A stretch of DNA of 45,176 bases from Escherichia phage vB_EcoS-22664BS2. The stretch lies in the sequence record NC_073324.1; one strand, written 5' to 3'. Of this stretch, positions 7,111 to 45,176 are shown in pieces (position 1 is the first letter of the stretch; the number at the start of each line of letters is the position of its first letter). Both the position numbers and the translations under genes were made by a program. Under the pieces are notes generated by a model, which worked only from the letters and a program-made list of their open reading frames with translations, searched no databases and was not told the origin of the DNA.

Positions 7111-7392
7111 CTATACAAATGTAAATCCAGTGCTGGTAGCGGTGTAACTGGTGGCGCCGTTTTTCGTTTCGGGCCAACAGATATACGAGCGCCCGCGATA
7201 CTCTACCCACCAAAGTTCCACATCGGAGTCCCCGTTAGGTCTAGTCAACCACCCGTGGTGTAGCCAATACTTGCGCCCTATTTTAAATATATCTTCTTCA
7301 CTGGAAGTCCACTCCTGAGCGACACACTCTACCTGAACGCTATCAACACATACACATGTAAGATATAAATCACTGTTTGAATATTTAGCCAT
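7111..7392 (-). CDS. hypothetical protein (93 aa), moron-like insert in head module
   Basis: Internal ATG at codon 37 of track ORF; own promoter and RBS; opposite orientation to flanking structural genes. Confidence 0.5.
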   Translation of the reverse strand: MAKYSNSDLYLTCVCVDSVQVECVAQEWTSSEEDIFKIGRKYWLHHGWLTRPNGDSDVELWWVEYRGRSYICWPETKNGATSYTATSTGFTFV

Positions 7393-7427
7393 TTCTAAAT
7401 TCCTTATCTCTCGTTTCGATGCAATGA

Positions 7428-9361: not shown

Positions 9362-9390
9362 TTGACTTTTCACTGAAAATGTGCTAAGCT
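9362..9390 (+). promoter_or_regulatory. sigma70-like promoter with extended -10 (TTGACT-N17-TGcTAAGCT) driving ncRNA candidate 1
   Basis: Same promoter architecture repeated at 41851-41879. Confidence 0.5.
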
Positions 9391-9393
9391 CCA

Positions 9394-9597
9394 CCTGAGC
9401 TTGTGAAGTATGAACAAGCGACCGCGGCGCGGGCAGGTAACGGAGCGGGACGTAAGTCCTGAGTGTAGTTACGCTGACGCGTTCGGAAGGGCCATAGTCT
9501 ATTGCTTGTGTAAAAAGTAACTGGTTTACTGAGATTACGCCGTTTCTATGTTTAAATGATAAGGACTAGCGCCCCGCTTTATGGCGGGGCTTTACTT
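9394..9597 (+). ncRNA. candidate structured non-coding RNA, copy 1
   Basis: Promoter upstream and hairpin plus T-run terminator at 9569-9597; first 38 nt identical to 41883-41920, rest aligns with indels. Confidence 0.4.
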
Positions 9598-9614
9598 ATC
9601 GAGAAAGGAGAAAC

Positions 9615-10894: not shown

Positions 10895-10896
10895 TA

Positions 10897-11946: not shown

Positions 11947-11961
11947 GGTTAAGCTATAATC

Positions 11962-11990: not shown

Positions 11991-12005
11991 ACTAAGAGGT
12001 AAATT

Positions 12006-12305: not shown

Positions 12306-12317
12306 AGGAGCTTAAAA

Positions 12318-12668: not shown

Positions 12669-12704
12669 TACAACGGCCCTTCGGGGCCGTAATAAGGAAA
12701 GGTC

Positions 12705-12884
12705 ATGGCAGATAATTACGTAATCCGCGAAAAGTATACCCACGTTGATATCGTTGACGGACAGGTGATGCCTGTTCGCGGTGTGGTAGAAGCGGATGAA
12801 CTGGTTGCAACCCAACCAGACAATGAAGAAGCGCACAACAACGGCGGTGGTACTAAGCGTCGTCGCCGTAAGTCAGAGGAATAA
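12705..12884 (+). CDS. hypothetical small protein (59 aa)
   Basis: Read by eye; AAGGAAAGG RBS; basic C-terminus. Confidence 0.3.
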   Translation: MADNYVIREKYTHVDIVDGQVMPVRGVVEADELVATQPDNEEAHNNGGGTKRRRRKSEE

Positions 12885-12887
12885 TTT

Positions 12888-13400: not shown

Positions 13401-13402
13401 AA

Positions 13403-14017: not shown

Positions 14018-14376
14018 TGAGCACAGCTTTCAGTAAACGTATGCAAGGCGTGGGCACACGCCTGCTAACCAAATTTGGTAGCACGGTATCTTTGGTTCGC
14101 GCTGGCTCGAAAGTGTGGGATGAAGTTCTCGGTGAATACGTCTGGTCTGCGGATGAAGTGTTGCCGTTGAAGGCCGTTCCGGTTCCGGTAAACGCGGGGC
14201 TGGTTAACGGTACGACGATTCAGGCTGGCGACATGATTGTTAAAGCGGATTACAGCGTCGTTCCGAAGATGGAAGACAAGGTGCAATTTGGCGGCGAGCA
14301 ATGGTCTATCGAAGCCATTGAGAAGAAGATAGTTAACGATGATGTCGTGGCATACTTTATTCAGGTGAGAAAATGA
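14017..14376 (+). CDS. head-tail joining protein (putative)
   Basis: ATG at codon 19 of track ORF, overlapping upstream stop. Confidence 0.45.
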   Translation: MSTAFSKRMQGVGTRLLTKFGSTVSLVRAGSKVWDEVLGEYVWSADEVLPLKAVPVPVNAGLVNGTTIQAGDMIVKADYSVVPKMEDKVQFGGEQWSIEAIEKKIVNDDVVAYFIQVRK

Positions 14377-14768
14377 GTTTTGCGCTTGATGTCTCTAAGT
14401 TCGTGGAAAAGGCGAAGAAGAACCCTGAGAAGGTGATGCGTCAGGTGTCTATCAAGCTGTTTTCCGCTATTATAAAGGCGAGTCCGGTAGATACTGGTCG
14501 GTTTCGCATGAACTGGATGGCATCTGGCGGTACTCCTGCTTCCGGGATTACGGATGCTACGGATAAATCAGGAAACACAGCAACCGGAAACGCTACAAGT
14601 TTCGTGCTGAAAGCCACCGACTGGCATGAGTTCACGCTGACAAATAACCTGCCGTATGCACAACGGCTGGAGTATGGCTGGTCGCAACAGGCCCCGCAAG
14701 GATTCGTCAGGACTAACGTGTCCCGCTTCCAGCAACTCATTAACGAAGAAGCTAGCAAGGTGAGATGA
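14373..14768 (+). CDS. tail completion protein (putative)
   Basis: ORF track; ATGA coupling. Confidence 0.45.
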   Translation: MSFALDVSKFVEKAKKNPEKVMRQVSIKLFSAIIKASPVDTGRFRMNWMASGGTPASGITDATDKSGNTATGNATSFVLKATDWHEFTLTNNLPYAQRLEYGWSQQAPQGFVRTNVSRFQQLINEEASKVR

Positions 14769-15181
14769 TGGGCTACTTTGAGGACTTAACAAAAGCGTTT
14801 GATGTGCCGCTGGTAGCCTTCGGAACCACCAACGGCATCAAGGTAGCGCTTGAAAACATCGACGCGCCGACGTCAACAGATACGCCGTATCTGGCAAGTT
14901 ACATGTTGCTGGCGGATACCGAGCAGGCTGACTTATTCTTCACGGAACAACGCGCCGGTGTCTATCAGATAGACATTAACTACGCATCGGTGAAAGGTAG
15001 CGCGCCAATCAATAAAATGGCAGACTTACTTAACACGGCGTTTAAATCAGGTAAGGCATTTTCGCGTAACGACATCTGCGCCGAGGTTCAATCGGTTAGC
15101 CTGGGGCCGCTGATTGTAGAAAACGGATGGGCCAAACGACCATTGTCAATTAACTTTATTGCATTCACCAAGAGGCTGTGA
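14765..15181 (+). CDS. tail terminator/completion protein (putative)
   Basis: ORF track; directly before major tail protein. Confidence 0.45.
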   Translation: MMGYFEDLTKAFDVPLVAFGTTNGIKVALENIDAPTSTDTPYLASYMLLADTEQADLFFTEQRAGVYQIDINYASVKGSAPINKMADLLNTAFKSGKAFSRNDICAEVQSVSLGPLIVENGWAKRPLSINFIAFTKRL

Positions 15182-16350
15182 ATATGGCTACAACTCCTTT
15201 TAAGGGCGCGAATACCGCGCAATTCTATGTGGCGGAAAATACCCCTGGCGTAACACCGACTAACCCGGTATGGTCGCCGTTGCGTAACACGGGCGGCGTT
15301 CCCGCTGTAACCCGCGATGCACTGACTTCCAACGAACTGGACGGCAGCCGTGAAACTACATCCATCCGAACCGGTAACAAACAGGTTAGCGGGGAGTACG
15401 CCATCGAACTTAGCTCTCGTAGCCAGGATGATTTCCTTGCGGGAGCGATGACTTCTACGTGGCAAGCTGGGGTAGAGATTACTGGCGCCAAAATTACGGT
15501 CGCCCCAGCAGGTAAAACATTCACCCGCGCTGCCGGTAGCTTCATTACTGACGGTGTAGAAGTTGGCGACCTTATTGCGTTCACCGACTTAACCGGCGAC
15601 AACGCAAAACCGTTTATCGTGACCGCGGTTTCCGCTCTGGTAGTTACGGGCGCAGGTATTCAGCACACGCTGACAGCAGAGACAGTAACCACTGACGCAA
15701 AAACTGGCGACAAGCTGGAAACCGGTAACGCGTGTAAGACGTTCTCCATCCTGACGTGGTTCAAGGGCCAGTGTGGTAACCCGGACGCGTACATGCTGAC
15801 CAAAGGTGTGGAAATCTCTGGCTTTACCGTAGAGCAGGCGGTTAACGCCATGGTCACCGGCAGCTTCCCGTTCATCGGCCTGAGTCAGGAGATTCTTACC
15901 GCGCCGCCGTCTGGCTCTGATTTCTCTCAGGTTACGTTCACCGATGAGCCGTTCTCGTCGGTAGATGTGTCGGTGTTCGATGGCTCCACGCCGTTGCGTT
16001 GCGATACTCTCACCATCACCAACGACAACGGAGCTTCCGCGCAGTTCGAACTCGGTAACAGTAGCGTGGCGTTCGTCGAACGTGGACGCGCAGCTAACAC
16101 ATTCTCTATCTCTGGCAAGCTGTACGACATGGCGATGATTCAGAAGTTTATCAACGAGCAGCAGGTAGAGATTAACTCTATTCTGGCAGGGGTAAACGGG
16201 GCTATGTCTTTCAGTTTGAAACGTGCAGAGCTTACGGCGGTTACACCTGAGATTGGTGGGCCTGAGTCAATCACTCAGTCCATTGAAGGCCAGGCTACCG
16301 GCAATCAGTACCAGTCGTCTATCGTAATTCAACGTATCACCTACGCATAA
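15178..16350 (+). CDS. major tail protein (putative)
   Basis: 390 aa, last gene of the head-tail block, followed by strong terminator. Confidence 0.6.
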   Translation: MNMATTPFKGANTAQFYVAENTPGVTPTNPVWSPLRNTGGVPAVTRDALTSNELDGSRETTSIRTGNKQVSGEYAIELSSRSQDDFLAGAMTSTWQAGVEITGAKITVAPAGKTFTRAAGSFITDGVEVGDLIAFTDLTGDNAKPFIVTAVSALVVTGAGIQHTLTAETVTTDAKTGDKLETGNACKTFSILTWFKGQCGNPDAYMLTKGVEISGFTVEQAVNAMVTGSFPFIGLSQEILTAPPSGSDFSQVTFTDEPFSSVDVSVFDGSTPLRCDTLTITNDNGASAQFELGNSSVAFVERGRAANTFSISGKLYDMAMIQKFINEQQVEINSILAGVNGAMSFSLKRAELTAVTPEIGGPESITQSIEGQATGNQYQSSIVIQRITYA

Positions 16351-16354: not shown

Positions 16355-16380
16355 AAGGCCCCTTTCGGGGCCTTTTTCTT
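16355..16380. terminator. bidirectional terminator
   Basis: AAGGCCCC-TTTC-GGGGCCTT hairpin plus T-run, between convergent genes. Confidence 0.6.
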
Positions 16381-18777: not shown

Positions 18778-18818
18778 GGTGTAGCTCCTGTTTGGGATAA
18801 CATCGTTGGTGTAAGTGA

Positions 18819-18847
18819 ATAGTACACTATTATATTGGGGTGTGCAA
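18819..18847 (-). promoter_or_regulatory. sigma70-like promoter (TTGCAC-N17-TACTAT) for the minus-strand cassette
   Basis: Conserved promoter family. Confidence 0.5.
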
Positions 18848-18954
18848 GTAATGTGATAGAATAATTTTGCGCCTAGTGTCGCACACGAAAAGCGGGTGGT
18901 TCCCGTCTGGCGCATTAACCTTAACCCGTAACCTCTTAACCAAAGGATTAAAGA

Positions 18955-19371
18955 ATGAAACTTTCTGATTTTTATTACGAAGCTGAGGCAGAAAAAGGCG
19001 CCCGTATGCCGATCCCACTGAAAGACGGCACCGATTCAGGGGAGTGGCTGAACGTTGTTTCACCGGAGGCAGACGTTGCGGTTAAAGCCATGCGTGCATT
19101 TACCCTGGCGTACCGCGCGTCGTTAGGTAAACTGAAGCCGCTTCGTGATAAATGCGAGGAACTGAAAGATTTCTCGGAATATAACATTAAGATGGAAGAC
19201 GCCGCGACGGACCTTAACCGCCAGTTAGCACTTGAACTGGTTAACGGTTGGAGTCTCGACGATGAATTTAATAAAGAGAACCTGAATACTCTTTTTTCAC
19301 AATATAAACGCCTCGCTGAACACGTTGTTGTTTTCCACAACGAACAGCTTCACCAATTGCAGGAAAAGTAG
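18955..19371 (+). CDS. tail assembly chaperone (lambda G-like)
   Basis: 138 aa acidic protein directly upstream of tape measure; a -1 frame ORF is open across its stop. Confidence 0.6.
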   Translation: MKLSDFYYEAEAEKGARMPIPLKDGTDSGEWLNVVSPEADVAVKAMRAFTLAYRASLGKLKPLRDKCEELKDFSEYNIKMEDAATDLNRQLALELVNGWSLDDEFNKENLNTLFSQYKRLAEHVVVFHNEQLHQLQEK

Positions 19372-19736
19372 ACGCGTTGCTCCAGTTTGCCCGTTGGAAC
19401 TTCATAACTCGCCACAAACGGCGGGAGTTTGACAGTATCTCCGACGGGCATAAAGCCGCGCTAATTGCTATGGGGGTTATGCAAGACGCGCCGGAAGCAA
19501 CGCAGGACACCGGGCCAGAATGCCCCCCTGAGCTATTAACCACCTTCGAGAAGTACAGGGAAATCAAATTCACCCGCCGAGTGGACGATGATGGCATCAA
19601 GATGTATCCGCGTGAACAGTTAAGATGGTCGGATTTAGTGGCATATAGCACCGTTTCAGGCCAGAATATAGGCATGTTTGAATCTGACATCATCATGAGC
19701 TTAGACGCTATTTTCGAGGGTAGAAACGATGGCTGA
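18955..19736 (+). other. predicted -1 frameshift fusion product of the tail chaperone (G-T-like)
   Basis: -1 frame is open from before the chaperone stop to 19736; candidate slip site AGGAAAAG at 19361-19368, just before TAG. Confidence 0.4.
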
Positions 19737-22068
19737 TGTAGCTAGTTTAGTTGTAAAAGTATCAGAGCAAGGCGCGAAAGCTACATCAGACCGTCTTGAT
19801 AACCTTTCCAAGTCTGCAAAGGTAGCCGGAGCTGCGGTAGCGGGCCTCGCTTCCATCGTCGCCGCTACCGCTTACAAGGCCGCACAGGAACTGGTAGAAT
19901 CCCAACGGCAACTGGACAAGATGTCCGCCAGCCTGAAAACACTAACCGGAAGCACGCAGGGTGCAAGACAGGCGTTAAGCATCCTGCAAGACTTCGCGCG
20001 CGACACTCCGTATGGCCTTGAACAGGCGGTAGAGGGATTCCGTAAACTTGTGGCGCTTGGTCTTACACCGTCAGAAGAAGCGTTGCGTTCCTACGGAAAC
20101 ACCGCCGCTGCTATGGGTAAAGACCTGAATCAGATGATTGAGGCGGTTGCAGACGCTAGTACTTTTGAATTTGAGCGCCTTAAAGAATTTGGTATCAAGG
20201 CCAAACAGAACAAAAACGATGTTGAATTTACATTCCAGGGTACTACTACGGTAGTTAAGAAGAGCGCTGCCGACATCGAGCAATACCTGCTCAACATCGG
20301 TAACGTAAACTTCGCGGGGGCTATGGCGGACCAGGCCAACACACTTAACGGGGCCATCGCCAGTGCCAGCGACTCATGGTCGCAGTTAAAAATGACACTG
20401 GCTACCAGTCTTGATGTTGGTGCGCTCGCCGAACCTATCCGATACATCGATGATTTAATCCAGGAACTTAACGCACAGGTTGCATCCGGTGAACTTGCCG
20501 CAGAGATGCGTATGTGGGGTGACATCGCGTCGGAAGTAGGAAGCGCAATAGAGATGTCATTCGACGCGGCATTTGGTTTCGTGGGTGATGCGATAAACGG
20601 GCTAAATGAGCTTTGGGATTTTAGTAGCAAAAGTATCACGGATAGCGGCGAACAAACGGCGACAACCATAGCGGAATCAGCCGCCGATGCGCTCGATTTC
20701 ATCGCGGAAGAATTTACCGCGATGGAGCGCTTCTTTGAGGATATGGTTAAAGGGGCGCAGGATGCCGGTCGGCTGGTTAAGGCCGCCTTCACACCAGGGG
20801 AATCCGTAGACGTAGCAAAAAATATTAACTTCCAGCTGGGGATGGCACTGGATACTCAGCGCGACGTTGCGGACCTGACACGTAAAAGTTTCCGCGAACA
20901 GGTGGAGGCTCAGCAAAATATCGTCGCGCTTAAACGCGCAGCGTATGACATCGACAAAGAAGCCGCTAAGGAAGAAGGGCTTAGTAAATTTAAGGTAACT
21001 GGTACCGGCGGCGGATCTGAAGATGATAGCGCGGGTGCAAAAGCCGCTAAGAAAGCAGCGGATGCGTTCGAGCGCCAGAAGAAAGCCGCGGAGGATTTCT
21101 ACTATCAGTCAATTCATCTCAATGATGACGTATTCCAGAAAATAGAAGCCAACCAGGAACAGCAGTTAACCAAGCTACAGGAGTTTTACGGCAATCAGCT
21201 TCTTAGCGACCAGCAGTACGAAAACGCCAAGACGCAGATTATGCTGGAAGCGGACACTGCTCGCCAGGAGGAACTCGCTAAACGAGAGAAAGAACGGCAG
21301 GAAAAGAACCAGAAAGGTGAAGACTTCATGGCTCAGATTATGGGTCAGAACGCCGCTGAGCTTGAGCTTCTCAACATTCAGGAACAGCAGAAACTGTCGG
21401 TAGCAGATAAGTACCGCGAGCAGGGTTTGATTAGTGAGAAGCAGTATCAGGCTGCGCTTAATGCCATCAACGAGCAGTACGCCACGAAGCGTGCCGACGC
21501 AACGGCAACGGCCTTCGGTAACATGGCCTCAAACATCGGTTCGGCTTTGGGCGAGGCTTCTGGCGCGTACAAGGCATTCGCTATCGTGCAGGCCACTATA
21601 GCCACGTACACCGCGGCTATTGAGGCGTATAAGTCAACAGCGGCTATCCCTGTAGTTGGCCCGTTCCTGGCTCCTGTAGCTGCCGCTGCTGCCGTTGGGG
21701 CGGGTATGGCGCAGATTTCCGCTATCAGGTCCGCACGTGAACAGGGCGGACAGTTATCCGCGGGGCAGGCTTCAACCATCGCCGAACGCGGTAAACCAGA
21801 AGTTATCATGCCCGCTGGTGCGTCACGTGTACGCACCGCACAGCAGATGAAAGAAATTATGGGGCAAAACGGGTCTTCTTCCGGACCGTCTAATGTTACT
21901 ATCGTAAACAACACGAGTTCTCAAATCGGCAACGTATCCACTGAGCAAGATGATGAAGGCCGTTTGCGTATCATCATCGAGGAGCAAGTGGCTGCCTCTT
22001 TGCAGAACAGTAACAGTAAGATTAGCAAGGCCCGCAAGGCCACAAGAAATGCGCCGGGGTTTAAATAA
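19729..22068 (+). CDS. tape measure protein
   Basis: 779 aa, Ala/Gln/Glu-rich coiled coil, follows chaperone pair. Confidence 0.85.
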   Translation: MADVASLVVKVSEQGAKATSDRLDNLSKSAKVAGAAVAGLASIVAATAYKAAQELVESQRQLDKMSASLKTLTGSTQGARQALSILQDFARDTPYGLEQAVEGFRKLVALGLTPSEEALRSYGNTAAAMGKDLNQMIEAVADASTFEFERLKEFGIKAKQNKNDVEFTFQGTTTVVKKSAADIEQYLLNIGNVNFAGAMADQANTLNGAIASASDSWSQLKMTLATSLDVGALAEPIRYIDDLIQELNAQVASGELAAEMRMWGDIASEVGSAIEMSFDAAFGFVGDAINGLNELWDFSSKSITDSGEQTATTIAESAADALDFIAEEFTAMERFFEDMVKGAQDAGRLVKAAFTPGESVDVAKNINFQLGMALDTQRDVADLTRKSFREQVEAQQNIVALKRAAYDIDKEAAKEEGLSKFKVTGTGGGSEDDSAGAKAAKKAADAFERQKKAAEDFYYQSIHLNDDVFQKIEANQEQQLTKLQEFYGNQLLSDQQYENAKTQIMLEADTARQEELAKREKERQEKNQKGEDFMAQIMGQNAAELELLNIQEQQKLSVADKYREQGLISEKQYQAALNAINEQYATKRADATATAFGNMASNIGSALGEASGAYKAFAIVQATIATYTAAIEAYKSTAAIPVVGPFLAPVAAAAAVGAGMAQISAIRSAREQGGQLSAGQASTIAERGKPEVIMPAGASRVRTAQQMKEIMGQNGSSSGPSNVTIVNNTSSQIGNVSTEQDDEGRLRIIIEEQVAASLQNSNSKISKARKATRNAPGFK

Positions 22069-23465
22069 TGAGCGACTTATATTTCCCACGTAGCCTTAAG
22101 CCGGTGGTATCGAAAGGCTACTCAATGACCAGACGCAACAACGTCTGGAGTGTAGATTTAGCCGGTGGCGGAGTGCGTCAAGGCCGTGACACGTATTATG
22201 ATGTGTTCCCAATAAGCGTAACCCTGATTACATCCGCAATGGGGCGGCAGGCGTTTCTGTCGTTCCTCGAGAAAGTCGATGGTGGCGCGTCAAGTTTCTG
22301 GATGGCGCACGACTTCGGCATGGGTATTGAGGATTATCAAGTCACCATTACATCCACCGTCGCCGAGTCCACTGAAGACGGGATTAACTGGACAATTACT
22401 TTCACGGCAACCGCTGAGAAATCACCGTTCCAGGACCTCGAGAACCAGTGTCTGATTAACAATCTGCCAGATTTGTATGGCTGTTATGGTGATTGCCTGG
22501 GCAGTTTCCTGAAAATATACGCGAACTATGAGACAACGTTCCCGCGCATCTGGAGCAATGAAGGGCCTGCCGGGTATCCACCGATTAACCTTCTGGCGTC
22601 GACTCTTGATAGCCGCATTGTGTATGGCGCGCCGCAGGTTTATTACATCAACCGCAACGGCAATCTTGTGCAGTCCGCCGCTAATGAATGGCCTCTTACG
22701 TTTATTGATGGGGTTGCTGTTGGACGTGTTCCGCCGGAATCCGCGTCCAGTAATATCCTGATTAAATCGTCGAAATTATCTGACGCATCGTGGGATAAAA
22801 CTAGAACAACAGTGTCGGATGCAGTTGACGGATTTCTAAACGGTGGTACGTTCTCGCTAGTCCCGAACCAGACAAACACCAGCCATCTCGTATATCAATC
22901 GGTGTCTTCCGCTTTTGCGGAGGGTGATGTATACACTCTCAGTTACGTTGCTAAGGCATATGGTTATAATTATGCGAGACTTCGCGCCGCTGATGATGCT
23001 GGGTTTATCGCGGATTGTGTTGCTAACTTATCGACAGGGGTTATTTACGCGGGCGCCCCCGGCAGCGATATAGCAGAGCTTGGCGATGGTTGGTATCGAT
23101 TTACAGAAACGGTAGCTATACGCCAGGGCGGCGCATCTTCTCTGCTTTTAGCGTCATGGGTGTACAACAACTCCGCCGTTGGTTCATTTGTCGGTGACGG
23201 GGTTAGTGGGATATTAGTGTGCGCGATGCAAATAGAAAAATCACCTTTTGCCACGTCGCCAATAGTAACCGAATCGTCACCGGTAACCCGAACGACGGCA
23301 TCGGCAAAAGTAGTAATGAACGGTGCAACAAGCATTGATATTACATATTCAGACGGCTCTGTGGTAAACGTTCCGTCTGTTGACGGTTACGCCGCCATCC
23401 CTCAAGCAGACTCTGCGTGGGGAAGCAAGTACATCACCCGTATTGATTTTAATGTGGACAGTTAA
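22068..23465 (+). CDS. distal tail protein with C-terminal extension (putative)
   Basis: First gene after tape measure; 465 aa. Confidence 0.5.
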   Translation: MSDLYFPRSLKPVVSKGYSMTRRNNVWSVDLAGGGVRQGRDTYYDVFPISVTLITSAMGRQAFLSFLEKVDGGASSFWMAHDFGMGIEDYQVTITSTVAESTEDGINWTITFTATAEKSPFQDLENQCLINNLPDLYGCYGDCLGSFLKIYANYETTFPRIWSNEGPAGYPPINLLASTLDSRIVYGAPQVYYINRNGNLVQSAANEWPLTFIDGVAVGRVPPESASSNILIKSSKLSDASWDKTRTTVSDAVDGFLNGGTFSLVPNQTNTSHLVYQSVSSAFAEGDVYTLSYVAKAYGYNYARLRAADDAGFIADCVANLSTGVIYAGAPGSDIAELGDGWYRFTETVAIRQGGASSLLLASWVYNNSAVGSFVGDGVSGILVCAMQIEKSPFATSPIVTESSPVTRTTASAKVVMNGATSIDITYSDGSVVNVPSVDGYAAIPQADSAWGSKYITRIDFNVDS

Positions 23466-23468
23466 CTT

Positions 23469-23984
23469 ATGAGCCAGGAATCAGTAGAAGCCGCCTATCG
23501 CCGTAAGCTGGCCTCCAACCCCGACGGCGAGATGGACTACATCACGTTGCAAATCAGCCACCCGTTGCTGTCTAAGACGTACTATCTTGTGCGCGGGTTA
23601 CAGGAACTCACGGCAACACTGGAGACAGGCGAAATTATCACGTTCGAGCCAACCCCGATGGAGGCGTCGGGGGCGGCTAACAACAGTGATATGGACCAGA
23701 CGACTACGTTTACTTTACCGGATATTCTCAATCAACTTGACGATGAGATGGATAAAATCCCTATGAGTAACACCGAGTTGCCGAAGTTCGTCTTCCGTCG
23801 TTACGTCAGCACAGACCTGTCTTATCCGGCTGACGGTCCTGTCATGTATGAGTTGCAGGCCATCAACCAGGAGAAGGGCGAGTTCTCCGCGGATGTTGGT
23901 ACACCTATGCTGAACCAGCGAAGCACTGGTATACTGATGACACCTAAAGAGATACCGTTATTACGCGGCCTGTTGACCACATGA
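23469..23984 (+). CDS. minor tail protein (lambda L-like position)
   Basis: Gene order in tail tip block. Confidence 0.45.
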   Translation: MSQESVEAAYRRKLASNPDGEMDYITLQISHPLLSKTYYLVRGLQELTATLETGEIITFEPTPMEASGAANNSDMDQTTTFTLPDILNQLDDEMDKIPMSNTELPKFVFRRYVSTDLSYPADGPVMYELQAINQEKGEFSADVGTPMLNQRSTGILMTPKEIPLLRGLLTT

Positions 23985-24346
23985 ATATTAACGACTACAC
24001 GGGCATACCTTACGACTTTCGCAAGCGCAATTGCTGGCATCACGTGCGCATTGTCCGCGCGGATGCCGGGTTAGAAACCCCTGCGTTCGACGTTACAAGC
24101 CCAACGGCAATTAACGAAGCGTTTGACGAAGGCCACCGTGACACGAAGGGGCTTACAAAAATTGATAAGCCTGAAAACTTCTGCGCGGTGCTTATGGGTT
24201 ATCGCCGCGGGGGTCGTATCGTGTGGCACGCTGGAGTTTACTTCGACGGGATGGTGAGTCATTGCGAGCTTGCATCCCGTCAGGTACGGCTTGACAGGCT
24301 GGTGGACCTCAGAGACACGTACACGGAGATTGAATTTTGGCGATAA
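23981..24346 (+). CDS. tail tip assembly protein, NlpC/P60-like (lambda K-like)
   Basis: Cys in RNCWHH and downstream His in WHAGVYFDGMVSH; gene order. Confidence 0.5.
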   Translation: MNINDYTGIPYDFRKRNCWHHVRIVRADAGLETPAFDVTSPTAINEAFDEGHRDTKGLTKIDKPENFCAVLMGYRRGGRIVWHAGVYFDGMVSHCELASRQVRLDRLVDLRDTYTEIEFWR

Positions 24347-26904
24347 TCCTGCACTACACGCGAAACGCTGAAGGCGCTTTCGACCGTACAAAACACGTCG
24401 GGATGCCGATGGAGTTTGTCGTTAACCGTATTCCCTACGGCGTGCCTGTGCGCGTCTATCTCGGTGAGATTGGCGATGATACAGATGTAACAGACGACTT
24501 CAATGCGCTCAAAGACGAGGACGCCGTGTACCACATTATCGAGGGTGCAGGCGGTGGTATCGGCGACGCTATCGGTAGTGTATTCAGTTTCATCCTTAAG
24601 CCAATTGCCAAATTGTTCGGGCTAAACACAGCAGCTAACGCTAATTATTCCGCTACCAACAATCAGGCTACGTCGCCTAACAACAGTCTTACTGACCGCT
24701 CGAACAAGCCACGTCCTTATGAACGTTCTTATGACATCTGCGGGACAGTGCAGACTATACCCAATGACCTGATGCAGACGTATAAGGTGTTTAACGCCAC
24801 GGGGGCGCTTATTGAATATGCGTACTATGACGCCGGTCGAGGGTATCTGCATATTGAGGAAGACGGTGTAACTGAGGCAGATACCCGAATCAGCGAGATA
24901 ACTGGCTCGTCGGTGACGGTGTATTCTCCTTACACTTCGCCGAATAACACCAGCACACCACAATTGCATATCGGCGACCCTATAGACCAGAAATTGTACG
25001 TTACATTTAAAAACGCCGATGTCGATGGCGCTGTTCTTCCCGCCCCTAATGATATCGCTATAGACGTGCAGGACTACACTGTCCAGCGGCAGGGAACAAC
25101 CGGCGTTGTAGTAGGCGATGACGCTGGTTTCGATGAGTTTTTGGCGGTCGGGGACCTGGCATACTTCGATAACGTATATGCAGATACAACCCCAGGGTCT
25201 TTGGGTAATGAGGTTAACCTGGACGGGAGGTACACGGTTCTTTCTGTTAGTGAAACGACCCTTATTGTGGACGTCAGTACAAATCAATCAATATGGAACC
25301 AGCTAGGAACATCTGTATGGTTTATAGGTGAAGAGGGCAACCATCTTATAGGCCCGGCGGATACTTACGCGGCTTCCCTCTCTGAATGGGCGTACATCAC
25401 CCGCGGAACCGTCGACCGTGTTGTAGCCAATGTGGCTGCCAGCAACGGCATGTACAAATACAACGGCGACTATAACCGCGCTTCAGTGACAGTCGAACTG
25501 CAATACCAGATGGTAGATGAATTGAAACAGCCTGTAGGTGACATATTTACCGTACGAGGAACCGTAACAGGCCGGAACACGGATTACACAGGGATTACTC
25601 TTTACGGAAGTTTACCAACTGCTTCCAGATTCCGCGCCCGTATGCGTCGTGTTTCGGACACCGATAAAGATTTTGAAGGTACTGTTAGCGACGAGGTTAC
25701 TTTCACTAATCTGTATGGGCAGTCGCTGGACACGACCCCCCACTACGGCAACCGTACTACCGTACACTGCGCCCGTAAACAAACCCCACGTGCAGCCGAG
25801 GTGTCCGAACCGGAACTGCGCATGATTGCAACCGAGATGTGCTACAAATACTTAGGTAACGGCGTATTCGATACGGTAATGACACCGAACACTCAGGCCG
25901 TGCAGTCGCTAATCAGGCTGGCGCGTGACCCTGTGGTGGGTAATCTGGAACTGACAACGGCAAATATGGACAAGTTACTTGCCGTGCAGGAAGAAATTGA
26001 GTCGTATTTTGACAGTGAATTAGCCGGGCAGTTCTGCTACACATTCGACGACTACGACACAACCATGCAAGACATCGTTCAGACCATCGCGGAAGCCGTG
26101 TTTTGTACGGCATACCGTAAAGGTGCTGATATTATGCTGCGATTCGACCGTCCTGTTGCGGGGCCTGAGATGGTTTTCACCCACCGCAGCAAAACGACCG
26201 GTACGGAGAAATGGACGCGCACGTTCAACGATTCGACAACCTACGATAGCCTGTCGTTCTCGTACATTGACCCGGATACAAACGTACAGGAGACGATTTA
26301 TATCCCGGAAGAACTCGGCGCGAACACCGAGGAGTACGAATCGAAGGGTGTACGTAACTATCAGCAAGCGTACTGGCTGGCGTGGCGTCGCTACCAGCGC
26401 AACACGTTAAGTAAAGTTGTCGTAGAGTTCGAAGCTACCGAAGAAGGCGCTCTCGCTACTCCCGGCGGCGTAATCAGTGTGGTTAAAGGCTCGCGTATCG
26501 CGCCGCAGGATGGTTATGTTGTTGCCGTCAATGGCCTTACGCTGACGCTGTCTCAGCCTGTTACGTTTACTCCTGGTGATGACCATTCCATCATTCTTAA
26601 GAAGCGCGACGGCTCTGTGCAGAGTATTTCTGTTATCAAAGGAAGCCACGACCGCGAAGTGATTATGCTCTCCGCGCCGGAGGAGGCAATCTACACGGGG
26701 AATAGTGCGCTAAAAACTGAGTTTTCATTCGGCAACGAAGCAAGGCATAATGCTCAGAAGATAGTTGTTTCTTCAATCGACCCCGGCGACGACCGCACGG
26801 TCAAGATTACGGGCTACAACTATGATGACGGATTCTATAAATACGACGGCGTCGCGCCATACGGCAGCGGTTTCTCCGACGGATTCAGCAATGGTTTTAA
26901 TTAA
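24337..26904 (+). CDS. tail tip / central fibre protein (lambda J-like; N-terminus resembles lambda I)
   Basis: 855 aa, TTG start overlapping upstream gene; Gly-rich hydrophobic N-terminal segment. Confidence 0.6.
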   Translation: MAIILHYTRNAEGAFDRTKHVGMPMEFVVNRIPYGVPVRVYLGEIGDDTDVTDDFNALKDEDAVYHIIEGAGGGIGDAIGSVFSFILKPIAKLFGLNTAANANYSATNNQATSPNNSLTDRSNKPRPYERSYDICGTVQTIPNDLMQTYKVFNATGALIEYAYYDAGRGYLHIEEDGVTEADTRISEITGSSVTVYSPYTSPNNTSTPQLHIGDPIDQKLYVTFKNADVDGAVLPAPNDIAIDVQDYTVQRQGTTGVVVGDDAGFDEFLAVGDLAYFDNVYADTTPGSLGNEVNLDGRYTVLSVSETTLIVDVSTNQSIWNQLGTSVWFIGEEGNHLIGPADTYAASLSEWAYITRGTVDRVVANVAASNGMYKYNGDYNRASVTVELQYQMVDELKQPVGDIFTVRGTVTGRNTDYTGITLYGSLPTASRFRARMRRVSDTDKDFEGTVSDEVTFTNLYGQSLDTTPHYGNRTTVHCARKQTPRAAEVSEPELRMIATEMCYKYLGNGVFDTVMTPNTQAVQSLIRLARDPVVGNLELTTANMDKLLAVQEEIESYFDSELAGQFCYTFDDYDTTMQDIVQTIAEAVFCTAYRKGADIMLRFDRPVAGPEMVFTHRSKTTGTEKWTRTFNDSTTYDSLSFSYIDPDTNVQETIYIPEELGANTEEYESKGVRNYQQAYWLAWRRYQRNTLSKVVVEFEATEEGALATPGGVISVVKGSRIAPQDGYVVAVNGLTLTLSQPVTFTPGDDHSIILKKRDGSVQSISVIKGSHDREVIMLSAPEEAIYTGNSALKTEFSFGNEARHNAQKIVVSSIDPGDDRTVKITGYNYDDGFYKYDGVAPYGSGFSDGFSNGFN

Positions 26905-26916
26905 AGAGGACTCTAT

Positions 26917-28902
26917 ATGTCAAGCGGATGCGGTGACGTTTTAAGCCTGGCGGATTTACAAACCGTCAAGAAACACCAAATTTTTGAAGCCGAGGTTATC
27001 ACCGGTAAATCCGGCGGGGTTGCTGGTGGCGCCGATATTGATTACGCGACCAACCCTGTTACCGGGCAGACCCAGAAGACGCTTCCTGCTGTGTTGCGTG
27101 ATGCCGGTTTTTCTCCCGTATCGTGGGACTTTTCCACCGGCGGTACGTTAACAGTTAATGGCCGCGACAAAGTGGTGTATGACCCCGTAAGCAAGACGTG
27201 GTACTCATATGCGGGTACGTTGCCGGTTGTTGTTCCCGCGAGTTTTAATCCAGTCGGTAACGCTAACTGGAAGCCGCAGACAGACCCAAATTTGCGTAAT
27301 GATTTGGCGTCAAGTACCGCCGGTTTAGGGGCTTCACTGGTGTCTTTTTCCAACGGTAACACCGTTGAAACATTATCTGACGCGGAAGGTGCCAAGAACA
27401 TAGGCAGTGGCGAAAGGAGTTTGCTTGCACGTAACAATGATATTAAGCATTCTGGCGACTTTTCTACCCTTCAAGCCGCGGTAGATGCGTCGTTAACTAA
27501 AAACGACTTAATTGTTTCTCCGGGTGAGTATACAGAAGCAATCACTCTGGGTAGTAAGCAGATAAAAGGTGTAGGTGGTGCTGCAATATTAAAACCATCG
27601 GCAAACTATGCAAATACTGTACAGGTTAATTTATCCACCCCGCACTGGCAGTTTCGACACAGCGGTGGTTTTGCCGTAGATGGTACAGGTACAACTGGGG
27701 CCGTAGGTATTAGTTTTGACCCGTCAGACCAATATTCCGGACGTCATAATTTTAGTGATTTATACATCCACAACATCAACAAGGCCATTCAGAAGCCTTC
27801 CGGGAACATCGGTAATACATGGAGAAATATTGGGGTATCTACGTGTGATTGGGGGTATTACGCGATTAGTGGCTCAGAGATGCATTGCGGGGCCGATACC
27901 CTCTACAATATCCACTTCGACGGCATCTCCACCTATGCCGTCTACCTAAACGGCACTGTCGATAACGGCGGGATAGGCGGATGGTGGCTTAAAGACTCCA
28001 TTATTGAGGCTTCCGGAGGCGGCGGGATATATTTAAAAAGCAAATCAGGTGACTGCCCTACATCTCCATGCGGGGTATCCAATGTATGGACGGAAGCGAT
28101 TGCAACATCATCGGCTGTTCAGGTAGACGGCGTGGCGCAAAAACCGCGAGTTCTCAAGTTGGTAGACACCGCGATATTCTTTGCTGAGTATTCTTATCTC
28201 AACAACATCGAGCTATCCAACTCCAACTTAGTAACTTATGGTTGCCGTTTTGACAACGCCGATGGTAATCAGGATATTGTAGTGGATGCACAAAGCACCA
28301 TCGTAGCCCACGACGTGTATTTAAACGGCAGCTCTGGAAAGGACGTTATTGTAGAGTCTGTCGCGTCGCAATCCGCAACGATAGCCACTACAAACTTGTC
28401 TCTACGAGGAAATTTAACAAGGGGACGAGTGTTTAATACGCCTACGGGGAATAAGTTAAAAGCTATCACATTTGACTCAGGTAGCCATAATTTTTCTGGT
28501 AGCGGTACCGTTAACGGTTCGACTGTATCTGACGGACTTCACGCCGCTACATGTACCGAATTTTCATTCCCTGGGTCCGGTTTATATGAAATGGTAGCGT
28601 CAAGAACGACACTTACATCCGGTAGATGGTACGTGTGGGGCGTCAACTCTCGCCTCCAATCAGGAACAGCAGATGTGAGTATAACGTCAGGTATTACTAT
28701 GGGTAGCGTTTATACTAAGTCTGGTGAGTGGATTAGCACATTTGGGGTGGGTAAAGCTTCCGCTAACGGTACTGTAGGTCTGTACGTCTCTACTGGGGGA
28801 GGTTCAGGTGCTGTTATCAGATTTAGTGACTTCTTCATCGCTGAGTTTACGACGCAGGCTCAGGCTTTAGCTTTCGCTAACTCCCGAATGTCGTTGGCTT
28901 AA
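26917..28902 (+). CDS. tailspike / tail fibre receptor-binding protein
   Basis: 661 aa; N-terminal anchor-like domain then Gly/Asn/Ser/Thr-rich repeats suggesting a beta-helix; last tail gene. Confidence 0.6.
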   Translation: MSSGCGDVLSLADLQTVKKHQIFEAEVITGKSGGVAGGADIDYATNPVTGQTQKTLPAVLRDAGFSPVSWDFSTGGTLTVNGRDKVVYDPVSKTWYSYAGTLPVVVPASFNPVGNANWKPQTDPNLRNDLASSTAGLGASLVSFSNGNTVETLSDAEGAKNIGSGERSLLARNNDIKHSGDFSTLQAAVDASLTKNDLIVSPGEYTEAITLGSKQIKGVGGAAILKPSANYANTVQVNLSTPHWQFRHSGGFAVDGTGTTGAVGISFDPSDQYSGRHNFSDLYIHNINKAIQKPSGNIGNTWRNIGVSTCDWGYYAISGSEMHCGADTLYNIHFDGISTYAVYLNGTVDNGGIGGWWLKDSIIEASGGGGIYLKSKSGDCPTSPCGVSNVWTEAIATSSAVQVDGVAQKPRVLKLVDTAIFFAEYSYLNNIELSNSNLVTYGCRFDNADGNQDIVVDAQSTIVAHDVYLNGSSGKDVIVESVASQSATIATTNLSLRGNLTRGRVFNTPTGNKLKAITFDSGSHNFSGSGTVNGSTVSDGLHAATCTEFSFPGSGLYEMVASRTTLTSGRWYVWGVNSRLQSGTADVSITSGITMGSVYTKSGEWISTFGVGKASANGTVGLYVSTGGGSGAVIRFSDFFIAEFTTQAQALAFANSRMSLA

Positions 28903-28905
28903 AAC

Positions 28906-28932
28906 TAAGGCCCCAAACGGGGCCTTTTCTCT
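28906..28932 (+). terminator. intrinsic terminator after tailspike
   Basis: AGGCCCC-AAAC-GGGGCCT hairpin plus TTTT. Confidence 0.6.
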
Positions 28933-31895: not shown

Positions 31896-32180
31896 CTAAC
31901 TATAATAGTTCGCTATTAGGTCGTCAACCTGTTTAAACGAACCAACGACAAAAACATTTGCACCGCGTTTACGGAATCTTTCATGCTCGCGTAACTGGTG
32001 GGGGTCAGGCTTCGTGTTTTCGTCTTTCTTAATCTCGACGAACCAGATGATACCGCCGGGGAGAATTACCAGCAGGTCCATGGCGGCTCGCCGGCCTTCA
32101 AATGCCATCTTGCGAACGAGGCCACCAATGGCCTCGAATCGCTCTTTTGCGTATTTCTGAATCTTGCCTTCCGGGGTCAT
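31896..32180 (-). CDS. VRR-NUC nuclease
   Basis: DLLVILPGG...FVEIKK pattern (PD-(D/E)XK core). Confidence 0.6.
   Translation of the reverse strand: MTPEGKIQKYAKERFEAIGGLVRKMAFEGRRAAMDLLVILPGGIIWFVEIKKDENTKPDPHQLREHERFRKRGANVFVVGSFKQVDDLIANYYS
31899..31927 (-). promoter_or_regulatory. sigma70-like promoter (TTGACG-N17-TATAGT)
   Basis: Conserved promoter family; lies in the 3' end of the upstream gene. Confidence 0.45.
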
Positions 32181-34727: not shown

Positions 34728-34753
34728 AGTAAAAAGGCCCAATGAAGGGCCTT
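34728..34753 (-). terminator. hairpin terminator/attenuator upstream of polymerase
   Basis: AAGGCCC...GGGCCTT hairpin followed by T-run on minus strand. Confidence 0.5.
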
Positions 34754-34772
34754 AGTTAAATTGATTCAGATA

Positions 34773-35399: not shown

Positions 35400-35454
35400 T
35401 TCTCGATTCCTCAGTTTTCAGTTTACTCCGGGAGCTGCCCGGCCAGTGATTAGA

Positions 35455-35483
35455 ACTATAATAGCTAACTATTCAGGTGTCAA
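35455..35483 (-). promoter_or_regulatory. sigma70-like promoter (TTGACA-N17-TATAGT)
   Basis: Consensus -35, 17-nt spacer. Confidence 0.5.
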
Positions 35484-38232: not shown

Positions 38233-38260
38233 ATCCGCCCCTCTCGTTTGGTATGGGCTA

Positions 38261-38289
38261 ACTATAATAGCGAACTATTCACATGTCAA
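38261..38289 (-). promoter_or_regulatory. sigma70-like promoter (TTGACA-N17-TATAGT)
   Basis: Consensus elements; divergent from the XRE gene promoter. Confidence 0.5.
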
Positions 38290-38293: not shown

Positions 38294-38322
38294 CTTTTCT
38301 AAAATAATTAATATGGTACTAT
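38294..38322 (+). promoter_or_regulatory. extended -10 promoter (TGgTACTAT) for XRE regulator
   Basis: TGn plus TACTAT; weak -35. Confidence 0.45.
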
Positions 38323-38353
38323 TCACATATCAACTGACTAAGGAGTAATTGAC

Positions 38354-38569
38354 ATGCAACCATCTGAACTAGGTATCCGTGTAGAACAACGCCGTAAAGA
38401 ACTCGGCATCTCCCAGCGCCGTTTGGCGGCCCTGACCGGCGTTTCCCAGGGCGCGATTAACCAACTGGCACTTGGAGTAACTCAGGACGTCCGCCCGGCA
38501 ACGCTGTTCAAACTGGCGGAAGTTCTGGAAGTAGACGCCAAGTGGCTGGCGTTAGGTGAAGGGGCTTAA
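38354..38569 (+). CDS. XRE-family HTH transcriptional regulator (Cro/CI-like)
   Basis: ELGISQRRLAALTGVSQGAINQL helix-turn-helix signature. Confidence 0.65.
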   Translation: MQPSELGIRVEQRRKELGISQRRLAALTGVSQGAINQLALGVTQDVRPATLFKLAEVLEVDAKWLALGEGA

Positions 38570-41330: not shown

Positions 41331-41564
41331 CTAGCGTTGGGGTTTCTTTTGCCTACGTGCCGCATTAATCCACTCTCCTTCGCTCTGGTAGAAACTGCAA
41401 TCAAGAATATCCTCTATAGAAAATTTAACTATTTTAGTGGGTCCACAAAAGTTATAAGGGAAAAGTTCTACATAACACCCATCGTCGGTTATATTCGACG
41501 CAATCTTGAAATAATATTTAATGCTGTCGTCTTCACGGAAGCTACAACCCATACGCCCAATCAT
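41331..41564 (-). CDS. hypothetical protein
   Basis: ORF track. Confidence 0.4.
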   Translation of the reverse strand: MIGRMGCSFREDDSIKYYFKIASNITDDGCYVELFPYNFCGPTKIVKFSIEDILDCSFYQSEGEWINAARRQKKPQR

Positions 41565-41749
41565 TTCACGTTCTCCTTAATCCACGCTTCAACTTTATTA
41601 CGGTCAAATGTTCCTGGTAAACGGCGCCCCATAACTTTAATACAGCAGTCAGGGAATTTACCACTGCGTAGCCAGTTATTAATTGTCTGACGTGTTACCC
41701 CGATACGTTCTGCTACTTCATTCTGGGTCATGTAATGTTGCATTTTCAT
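41561..41749 (-). CDS. small HTH DNA-binding protein (AlpA/excisionase-like)
   Basis: ATG at codon 19 of track ORF with AGGAGA RBS; MTQNEVAERIGVTRQTINNW HTH. Confidence 0.5.
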   Translation of the reverse strand: MKMQHYMTQNEVAERIGVTRQTINNWLRSGKFPDCCIKVMGRRLPGTFDRNKVEAWIKENVK

Positions 41750-41773
41750 ATCTCCTGTTTGTTTGGTGAAAAC

Positions 41774-41803
41774 GAGTATAGGATAGCGGGAATGTAAAAG
41801 CAA
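41774..41803 (-). promoter_or_regulatory. putative promoter (TTGCTT-N18-TATACT) for the HTH gene
   Basis: Divergent from the ncRNA-2 promoter. Confidence 0.4.
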
Positions 41804-41850
41804 CTAAAACACCACACAAAGTTACTAAGATACAAAAGATGCTACTGGTA

Positions 41851-41879
41851 TTGACTTTTACTAAAAAATATGGTAAGCT
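41851..41879 (+). promoter_or_regulatory. sigma70-like promoter with extended -10 (TTGACT-N17-TGgTAAGCT) driving ncRNA candidate 2
   Basis: Same architecture as 9362-9390. Confidence 0.5.
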
Positions 41880-41882
41880 CAG

Positions 41883-42095
41883 CCTGAGCTTGTGAAGTAT
41901 GAACAAGCGACCGCGGCGCGCGGCAGGCGAAACGAGCACGTGTAGCGTGTGGAGTGAGGCTCGCTAGCGCGTTTGGGAGGCCCAAAGTCTATTGTAAATC
42001 CCACCTAAATATCTAAGTTACTGATTTGCCGTAGGTCAGAACCGCAAGCTCACTCACTCACTCTTGGTGCCTTCGGCACCCCGTTCGTTTCGTTT
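41883..42095 (+). ncRNA. candidate structured non-coding RNA, copy 2
   Basis: 38-nt block identical to 9394-9431; ends in GGTGCC-TTCG-GGCACC hairpin with T-rich tail. Confidence 0.4.
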
Positions 42096-42147
42096 CGCTC
42101 GCCATCCCATTAAACAAAAGAATCACAACGGCAACGTAACTATTCTC

Positions 42148-42176
42148 TTGCACACCCCAACATAATAGGATACTAT
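42148..42176 (+). promoter_or_regulatory. sigma70-like promoter (TTGCAC-N17-TACTAT) for early operon
   Basis: Conserved promoter family; leader ATCGAAACGAGACAGAGGAG. Confidence 0.55.
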
Positions 42177-42210
42177 TCACTTATCGAAACGAGACAGAGG
42201 AGTGAGGGTT

Positions 42211-43270: not shown

Positions 43271-43305
43271 CAGGTCAATAGGTTACTATTTGTCTTTGTG
43301 ACTTA

Positions 43306-43335
43306 CGCTGCTGTGTAGCAGCGTATCATTTTTCT
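43306..43335 (+). terminator. intrinsic terminator
   Basis: CGCTGCT-GTGTA-AGCAGCG hairpin followed by T-rich run. Confidence 0.5.
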
Positions 43336-45022: not shown

Positions 45023-45176
45023 TGTCTCTTGCAACTGACATCCTGAAACGAAGCGGCCTTGCGCCGCTGTCACCGAGAGCGAAGACACGTATACACAAGC
45101 GCCGCCGTAACGCGCTGTACCCCGAGATTCAGGCCAGGCGCAAAGCGGTCCGCGCCTGTGGATTCCAGAACGGAAA
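45022..45176 (+). CDS. N-terminal part of wrap-around gene (continues at 1..190)
   Basis: ATG overlapping upstream stop; frame continues through the 51-nt end overlap. Confidence 0.4.
   Translation, partial: MSLATDILKRSGLAPLSPRAKTRIHKRRRNALYPEIQARRKAVRACGFQNG

Follow-up and report, generated by a model that had tools for sequence, protein, structure and literature searches.

The put RNAs of phage HK022 act in cis and independently of any protein: they bind the zinc-binding domain of the RNA polymerase beta' subunit and suppress pausing and termination. They come as two related copies, each of two stem-loops, with one copy starting at +3 of the PL transcript, and they act on downstream terminators (PMC9378689). 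Here we describe a conserved, structured RNA element that occurs twice in Escherichia phage vB_EcoS-22664BS2 (sequence record NC_073324.1; 45,176 nucleotides (nt), hereafter the window), the complete genome of a virulent siphovirus that is a Kagunavirus of the subfamily Guernseyvirinae. Copy 1 stands before the head operon and copy 2 in an intergenic gap before the rightward lysis and packaging operon (Table 1). Like putL and putR, they are two related copies at the heads of two operons, one of them 2-3 nt from the predicted 5' end, and they share with the put system two stem-loops, conserved non-canonical internal loops, downstream terminators, an Escherichia coli host and its sigma-70 polymerase. 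In contrast to put, the domain is ~110 nt rather than ~70 nt long, its first hairpin (P1) is nearly absent in Jerseyvirus forms, and its carriers are virulent Guernseyvirinae rather than lambdoid temperate phages. Homology with put was considered and rejected, as a model of the element finds nothing in the HK022 genome and local alignments with putL and putR score within the controls, 10-95% of shuffles scoring at least as high.

A second point of comparison is the lambda PR'-qut-tR' region with its 194-nt "6S" transcript. Loading of lambda Q is DNA-based and needs a sigma-dependent pause, and the AlpA system is related; the lambda leader is not known to carry an RNA fold that is conserved and covaries. 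Copy 1 resembles it in having a promoter and a ~200-nt leader, predicted to be terminated, right before late genes, with the promoter at 9362, a hairpin at 9571-9590 and the spanin ATG at 9615, followed by scaffold and capsid genes. By inspection, AAGTAT at +10 to +15 fits the pause pattern NANNAT in most variants, the exceptions being type F and L097. Ten small early proteins that we scanned gave no match to Q or Phage_AlpA, the matches being just generic HTH_17 and XRE helix-turn-helix (HTH) proteins, and a PDB sequence search with the HTH protein encoded beside copy 2 returned generic HTH matches only, with no specific match to AlpA.

Processive antitermination from a leader RNA is also known in the Bacillus EAR RNA. 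The conAn2 and conAn1 elements of Gram-positive conjugative plasmids work in this way (PMC8191782), and conAn2 shares with our element a structured leader of ~100-200 nt that lies just 3' of a long operon's main promoter and precedes terminators. The hosts and the elements are unrelated, however, the element has no Rfam match to EAR, and no partner protein was identified here. Lambda oop and P22 sar are likewise short non-coding transcripts with a dedicated promoter and a hairpin end, as we predict for this element, but those RNAs are antisense to overlapping targets, whereas opposite this element there is no gene for it to overlap, no phage target could be detected for it, and its conserved fold is far more elaborate.

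The element is a conserved structured RNA of a family described neither in Rfam nor in the searchable literature. A search of the whole window against Rfam 15 at gathering thresholds gave 0 matches, and the best hits at the two loci had E-values of 0.5-1 and scores of 13-18 bits against gathering scores of 35-59 bits. The literature covers an operator motif and predicted terminators of these phages, and we found no paper on this RNA or on late-gene regulation in Guernseyvirinae.

A conserved and covarying RNA fold

The domain common to both copies starts at about +3 and consists of two hairpins, the short P1 and the long, irregular P2. An architecture of P1, a linker, P2 and an unpaired tail comes out of both RNAalifold and the single-sequence folds. 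The consensus of P2 reads CCG.GGCGCG..mid-stem..internal loop..apical hairpin..GAGUGUAG..CGCGUU.CGG, and the tail has the subfamily consensus (UU)CGGAAGGGCC...CUAUUG. The tail is nearly invariant, Jerseyvirus forms included, and its variable positions have no compensating partner.

We collected ~100 related sequences from IMG/VR, GenBank phages and metagenomes and assessed covariation in a model-based alignment of 39 distinct sequences, with slid partners and shuffles as controls. In this alignment 93.3% of cells are paired, versus 29-40% in the slid controls, and 50 cells have changed on both sides, versus a shuffled mean of 14.3. The P2 pair 38-99, for instance, is seen as C-G, U-A and A-U, and pair 48-88 as U-A, A-U and G-C. 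All 27 distinct P2 sequences give the same irregular hairpin with at least nine different apical stems, among them GGGAC/GUCCU, CGGAC/GUCCG, GGUGC/GCACU, GGGGC/GCCCU, GUGCC/GGCAC, CACGU/ACGUG, GGGCGC/GCGCCC and GGGCGU/ACGCCC. P1 is lengthened to 8 base pairs (bp) in the type F variant, which has a GAUA loop and one U-A pair turned into U-G; in Jerseyviruses it is replaced by (UA)CGCU-UUC-AGCG(UA), and their P2 has a new mid-stem and a new apical stem. Around these exchanges, ACCGCGGnGCGG, GrAGCGGG, nAGyGUA, CGCnUUCGGAAGGGCC and CUAUAUUGC are invariant, Jerseyviruses included.

These results bear on an earlier note, made by a model from the letters of this stretch alone and referred to here as the original prediction, which had taken the two copies for a duplicated functional RNA rather than a chance repeat. 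The 38-nt block that it reported is indeed identical between 41883-41920 and 9394-9431; with at most one mismatch the 38-mer occurs at those two sites only, with 0 expected in 100 shuffles, so that chance is set aside by the shuffle control. A repeat search returned a 70-nt direct repeat of 87% identity between the copies. Past the block, the original prediction had described a diverged middle. Divergence holds for the sequence, but the same secondary structure is kept in both copies, and similarity itself resumes with GCGCGTT.GG.AGG.CCA.AGTCTATTG (in RNA, GCGCGUU.GG.AGG.CCA.AGUCUAUUG). Conserved structured RNA in both copies supports a duplicated functional RNA, and the retention of pairing in both hairpins through compensatory changes across phages supports an RNA over a mere DNA site.

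Promoters of the two copies

The promoter proposed for copy 2, TTGACT-N17-TGgTAAGCT, is present where it was described, and copy 1 has a close counterpart (Table 1). Across phages, both hexamers and the TG are invariant or nearly so, and the spacer varies in sequence at a fixed length of 17 nt; the 3-6 nt 3' of the -10 (positions -6 to -1) are free to vary, and conservation returns at (C)UGAGC. We read this pattern as that of a sigma-70 extended -10 promoter with transcription predicted to start near G41886 in copy 2 and G9397 in copy 1. A simple consensus promoter scan skips the copy 2 promoter, in which TAAGCT agrees with TATAAT at three of six positions. The Jerseyvirus form of the promoter is T(A/T)GACT-N17-TGnTACGCT. 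An inverted repeat, AAGCTC-N5-GAGCTT, spans the -10 and +1.

A perfect palindrome, ACTATTCGAATAGT (9349-9362), abuts the -35 of copy 1 with its centre near -42.5 and is absent from copy 2. Its half-site words are those of the AATAG-N4-CTATT operator family with their order swapped; as a site for an activator or a repressor, it might place copy 1 under temporal control.

Anatomy of copy 2

P1 starts at +3 of the predicted copy 2 transcript and is joined to P2 by a 2-nt linker. The asymmetric internal loop of P2 contains the conserved GGAGUGAG, and the apical hairpin in this copy is GCACGU-GUA-GCGUGU (41936-41950). Beyond the conserved tail, the two short motifs of the A/U-rich middle region, AAGUUACUGAU and UGCCGUAG, are also present in copy 1 and in the unrelated units of other phages. 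On the opposite strand of the middle region, AATCAGTAACTTA matches the IHF consensus WATCARNNNNTTR by eye and is a candidate site. The (CACT)3 run was found as predicted. Its copy number varies among close relatives, with three copies here, four in L146 (about 2299-2318) and six in the Golestan contig L005; evidently this part of the RNA tolerates changes in length or is prone to slippage.

The terminal hairpin of copy 2 has the arms described for it, GGTGCC (42066-42071) and GGCACC (42075-42080), closed by a loop of 3 nt, TTC, and not by TTCG. The T-rich tail ascribed to it does not stand, as CCGTTCGTTTCGTTTCG has C and G interruptions and makes a poor U-tract. Since the U-tract CCGUUCGUUUCGUUUCG is broken by C and G, the hairpin is probably a weak intrinsic terminator or attenuator at best.

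In copy 2, the 5' strand of P2 (41914-41938) has a complement in the tail that follows this hairpin (42081-42104), with a predicted duplex of -31.2 kcal/mol that 1.3% of shuffled tails equal, and the minimum-energy fold of the full-length copy 2 adopts this pairing in place of P2. Pairing between tail and P2 is found in types B and D with T1 and in type F with T2, where an analogous 9-nt complement to P2 is present (1-2% of shuffled tails are as good); it is absent in C with T2, E with T3 and the copy 1 combinations. It could be a lineage-specific conformational switch, or chance.

Copy 1 and the late genes

The minimum-energy fold of the copy 1 domain equals the consensus (z = -2.7). The head operon opens with the Rz-like spanin gene, whose ATG (9615) lies ~15 nt past the tail of the copy 1 hairpin, and in every phage examined copy 1 directly precedes the ribosome-binding site of the gene that comes first in the spanin/scaffold/capsid operon. 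No further promoter is evident in the interval from the bidirectional terminator at 9010-9030 to the ATG at 9615. The original prediction had proposed a self-contained promoter-to-terminator RNA gene, and this is not established: the copy 2 hairpin has a poor U-tract, and copy 1 looks like an operon leader because the ribosome-binding site of the first late gene follows it directly and no other promoter is evident. The Jerseyvirus form points the same way: the hairpin before the gene is almost without a U-tract (UUAGCGUAU), and the RNA there is therefore most simply a 5' untranslated region.

The stretch from -49 to +225 is the best conserved of the copy 1 neighbourhood, with a mean pairwise identity of 0.93-0.99 for the unit versus 0.81-0.96 for the downstream gene. 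The copy-1-type terminal hairpin shows compensatory changes (CCCUGC/GCAGGG in L001 and GCCCGAC/GUCGGGC in the Jerseyvirus L200), and three non-homologous modules are exchanged at the end of locus 2, the site of copy 2; on these grounds the terminal hairpins are under selection. Five near-identical bidirectional terminators of the form AAGGCCCC-N4/5-GGGGCCTT mark operon ends (7086-7105, 9010-9030, 16355-16374, 28903-28928 and 34731-34757) and look far stronger than the terminal hairpins of copies 1 and 2.

Distribution and history

Copy 1 is present in 179 GenBank phage records, in all but one of them (178/179) with an identity of at least 95% across all 254 nt. Jerseyviruses that BLAST missed (Ent3 and 11 IMG/VR genomes) carry a divergent homologue at the same place, which makes copy 1 the element ancestral to the subfamily. 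The element has two places in roughly 40-47 of the 179 records, a copy-1-like domain at locus 2 being found in only a subset of Kagunaviruses; copy 2 is a secondary duplication. The picture of two transcriptional boundaries in the original prediction thus calls for revision: the two copies are not equivalent, copy 1 being subfamily-wide and copy 2 confined to some Kagunaviruses.

Other relatives carry something else at locus 2. In Bas71, K1G and the Jerseyviruses Ent3 and SE-W109, a strong promoter is followed by 200-300 nt of unrelated structured sequence (Table 1), and the K1G unit holds an inverted copy of the copy 1 terminator hairpin (AGCCCCGCCATAAAGCGGGGCGCT). The middle region is partly common to locus-2 units from about GUCUAUU on, and the end of locus 2 is always formed by one of three non-homologous GC hairpin modules, immediately 5' of the conserved, operator-bearing promoter that belongs to the rightward operon. 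From its sequence, locus 2 is a mosaic of swappable RNA or hairpin modules.

Outside these phages the element was not encountered. None of 5,426 complete E. coli genomes has a copy. Among bacterial and archaeal genomes, taken one per species, 70 pattern matches were found, about the chance estimate, and the model confirmed one of them, L146, a Kagunavirus contig mis-binned into a metagenome-assembled genome of Bacillota. Metagenomes returned 120 loci, of which 100 were searched with the model; the 28 that passed were all of known Kagunavirus types, with no new lineage.

Possible roles of the element

Alongside what is observed directly, namely the conservation pattern of the promoter, the covarying structure, the positions of genes and terminators and the distribution among phages, we tentatively put first, at somewhat less than an even chance, a reading in which the domain is a cis-acting 5' leader that together with a weak terminator forms an attenuation or processive-antitermination module. 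The reason for an antitermination reading is the layout: a conserved fold at the 5' end, a terminator and the head of a long operon make up the layout of a processive-antitermination leader, of which HK022 put, nut, EAR and conAn2 are examples. Host sigma-70 RNA polymerase would initiate at the strong extended -10 promoter, and the first ~110 nt of the transcript would form P1 at +3, P2 with its conserved internal-loop residues and the conserved single-stranded tail. Some 60-90 nt further on, the GC hairpin would serve as a weak or partial terminator, and polymerases stopping there would free an RNA of ~200 nt. By itself or together with a factor from phage or host, the folded 5' domain would make the elongation complex resist this and later terminators, and transcription would then proceed into the operon. 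Terminator-like sites do lie inside both downstream operons. Copy 1 would feed the head operon (9615-16350), with its internal site at 11962-11983, and copy 2 the rightward lysis and packaging operon, with internal sites at 43304-43325 and 7086-7105. Copy 2 itself would have arisen later, by duplication of the copy 1 domain into a locus in which a promoter-to-hairpin unit was already present. The site at 11962-11983 is a strong terminator-like hairpin, GAGAGGGAC-UUCG-GUCCCUCUU followed by UUCAUUU, right after the major capsid gene, and expression of the connector and tail-tube genes would need read-through of it.

A bolder form of this idea, in which the 110-nt domain represents a structural class of antiterminator RNA that is new, self-sufficient and unrelated to put, seems improbable to us. 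Folding at the RNA exit channel, the domain would then render E. coli RNA polymerase resistant to terminators with no help from a protein, and it would be the switch for late-gene expression in a large group of virulent phages used in therapy (Kagunavirus and Jerseyvirus).

Several observations weigh against an attenuator or antiterminator leader. The start site, the 3' end and read-through, and with them termination efficiency and antitermination activity, are all inferred from sequence. Between copy 2 and its operon stands an independent promoter for that operon (42148-42176), and read-through is therefore not required there. Bas71 has no such domain at locus 2, yet it has the same internal terminator in its rightward operon, and the tail operon (18955 onward) has no such element. 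No similarity to putL or putR is seen in sequence or model, none of the ten small early proteins scanned was recognised as N-like or Q-like, and no mutually exclusive pairing of terminator and antiterminator is conserved across all variants. Finally, the hairpin of locus 2 is kept in all relatives whatever the 5' sequence, which fits a discrete RNA product at least as well.

Such a product, a stand-alone, abundant, trans-acting non-coding RNA of ~200 nt with the hairpin as its true 3' end, is a reading that we judge unlikely, though it deserves serious weight. The RNA could use the P2 loops and the tail to bind or sequester a protein of the host or the phage, for which the very high conservation of loops and tail would be suited, or pair with host mRNAs through its A/U-rich middle, where the motifs AAGUNACUGAU and UGCCGU are common to otherwise unrelated units. 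Both loci have the layout of promoter, structured body and GC hairpin; every relative keeps the strong promoter as well as the terminal hairpin at locus 2 despite unrelated 5' sequence, and the operon 3' of locus 2 has its own promoter. Copy 1 fits this less well, since no promoter separates its hairpin from the first late gene. A typical Hfq-dependent small RNA ends in a terminator with a long U tail, whereas the U-tails here are short or interrupted. Nor did we detect a phage target: comparison with ~120 translation-start regions by RNAduplex, and a search of the phage transcripts for exact 10-12-mer complements, gave no complementarity above shuffled controls or chance. By these two features the element does not resemble an Hfq-type trans-acting RNA.

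A simpler role in the stability or processing of the 5' untranslated region, with P1 shielding the late mRNA from RNase E attack that depends on the 5' end, P2 serving as an RNase III-type site and elongation unaffected, strikes us as improbable. Stem-loops at the 5' end with few unpaired 5' nucleotides stabilise E. coli mRNAs, and P1 begins 2 nt from the predicted 5' end; yet P1 is nearly lost in Jerseyviruses, if transcription there starts at the usual distance from the -10. P2, with ~22 bp and internal loops, resembles phage RNase III substrates such as the T7 R sites, but its near-invariant loop residues, like those of the tail, exceed the needs of a generic stabiliser or RNase III site. 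Copy 1 leads a highly expressed operon, as a stabiliser might, whereas between copy 2 and its operon there are a hairpin and a second promoter.

A role at the DNA level, as a site for a phage regulator or host protein or as a transcription-activated replication origin beside the T7-like module, we consider very unlikely. The inverted repeat over the -10 and the transcript start would suit a protein-binding site, but the discriminator inside it varies in sequence and length. The minimum of cumulative GC skew, at about 41-42 kb, merely follows gene orientation and is uninformative on an origin. Locus 2 does lie at a divergence point beside the helicase-primase and HTH genes, and its middle region has the candidate IHF match, but copy 1 lies within the structural-gene region, and compensatory changes at distant positions are expected of RNA or single-strand structure, not of duplex protein-binding sites.

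To a small arginine-rich peptide, MNKRPRR..., we give practically no credence: an ATG stands at +15 and opens a reading frame of 22 amino acids in copy 2 and 36 in copy 1 that some GenBank records annotate (e.g., Bas71_0007), but the frame is not conserved among 61 distinct units, the ATG being missing in 12 of the 61 and the length ranging from 9 to 41 amino acids through frame-shifting indels, while the sequence is unrelated between variants after residue 7, has no Shine-Dalgarno sequence and changes with base pairing rather than with codons. The "hypothetical proteins" annotated over the element in GenBank should be regarded as spurious and replaced by an RNA annotation.

Guernseyvirinae (Kagunavirus and Jerseyvirus) are among the commonest phage isolates from E. 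coli and Salmonella and are used in therapy and engineering, and the element is the best-conserved non-coding sequence in their genomes, placed exactly where transcription of the late genes has to start. Should it prove to be an antiterminator or attenuator leader, it would offer a handle on late-gene timing in these phages and would be a second, independent case of RNA-mediated control of elongation by E. coli RNA polymerase. Should it work in trans, it would instead add a new, abundant RNA of phages, with a partner to be found.

Genomic setting

The copy 2 region is 96-97% identical to Kagunavirus phages such as Golestan, SCS44 and RP180. Positions 1-51 and 45126-45176 of the window are identical over 51 nt, which is why we take it to hold one complete phage genome; these ends are consistent with assembly overlap of a circularly permuted or terminally redundant genome. 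Gene order was taken from annotated relatives (Table 1).

Table 1. Positions in the window of the two copies of the RNA element and of surrounding features, with the unrelated locus-2 units of other phages.
Feature	Position	Strand	Details
Copy 2 promoter	41851..41879	+	-35 TTGACT 41851-41856, 17-nt spacer, extended -10 TGgTAAGCT 41871-41879
P1 hairpin, copy 2	41888..41908	+	GCUUGU 41888-41893 with ACAAGC 41903-41908, loop GAAGUAUGA
P2 irregular long hairpin, copy 2	41911..41976	+	CCG/UGG closing pairs, GGCGCG/CGCGUU, mid-stem
Conserved 3' tail of domain, apparently unpaired	41977..41994	+	GAGGCCCAAAGUCUAUUG
A/U-rich middle region	41995..42050	+	short conserved motifs AAGUUACUGAU, UGCCGUAG
(CACT)3 microsatellite	42051..42062	+	
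Terminal hairpin, copy 2	42066..42100	+	GGUGCC-UUC-GGCACC (42066-42080), 6 pairs, tail CCGUUCGUUUCGUUUCGCUC
Copy 1 unit	9362-9600	+	
Copy 1 promoter	9362..9390	+	TTGACT-N17-TGcTAAGCT
Copy 1 5' domain (P1, P2, conserved tail)	9397..9505	+	model match 134.9 bits
Copy 1 terminator-like hairpin	9571..9599 (hairpin 9571-9590)	+	GCCCCGC-UUUAU-GGCGGGGC, tail UUUACUUAU
Unrelated locus-2 unit, Bas71	L110 24860-25130		
Unrelated locus-2 unit, K1G	L189 530-850		
Unrelated locus-2 unit, Ent3	L187 1145-1440		
Unrelated locus-2 unit, SE-W109	L188 545-845		
Rightward operon	42211 across window ends to 9006	+	small genes, holins, endolysin, nin-like genes, terminase, portal, head morphogenesis
Head operon	9615-16350		Rz-like spanin gene first, then scaffold, major capsid
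Short leftward block	between head and tail operons		
Tail operon	18955-28902		
T7-like replication module	41749 down to 29065		leftward
Small HTH gene	41561..41749	-	generic HTH_17 protein
XRE HTH protein gene	38354..38569		
Downstream promoter	42148..42176	+	TTGCAC-N17-TACTAT; palindromic operator AATAGGATACTATT; separate from copy 2 RNA
Operator-type promoters	7421-7456, 9260-9295, 18812-18847, 31898-31927, 35454-35483, 38260-38289	-	
Operator-type promoters	38309-38333, 42148-42179	+	
Further operator-type promoter	about 41770-41802	-	probable

The gap that holds copy 2 had been put at roughly 460 nt and measures 461 nt (41750-42210). The small HTH gene diverges from copy 2 as described, being on the minus strand with a promoter-like site, TTGCTT-N17-TATACT, that points away from the copy 2 unit at ~50 bp from its -35. 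The analysis brought out no tie between the element and this HTH protein or the XRE protein. On the other side of copy 2, the promoter at 42148-42176 probably drives the rightward operon (ATG at 42211). It is one of a family of sigma-70-like promoters (TTGCAC or TTGACA, N17, TACTAT or TATAGT) whose spacer holds the palindromic operator AATAG-N4-CTATT. The motif is already in the literature as the PHIRE "phage promoter" motif tgAATAGTa-ccTATTat-T (PMC9825357), although to us it reads better as host promoters under a single phage repressor or activator.

Three further features of the genome lie apart from the two RNA units. Compared with Bas71, the window has ~380 nt extra at 7064-7440, between the portal and head-morphogenesis genes; this insert holds a minus-strand open reading frame (7111..7393, ~94 amino acids) with its own operator-type promoter and terminators on both flanks, and looks like a moron. 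Near-consensus sigma-70 promoters at 1302-1330 (TTGACA-N17-GATACT) and 1424-1452 (TTGACT-N17-TATATT) stand ahead of the small-gene cluster that begins at 1487, and both are kept in Bas71 (L110 29684 and 29806). The leader of the tail operon contains at 18868-18915 a nested GC-rich hairpin, GCGCCUAG...CGGG-UGGUU-CCCG...CUGGCGC, without a U-tract, which lies 3' of an extended -10-like site, TGaTAGAAT, that is itself back-to-back with the promoter at 18812-18847.

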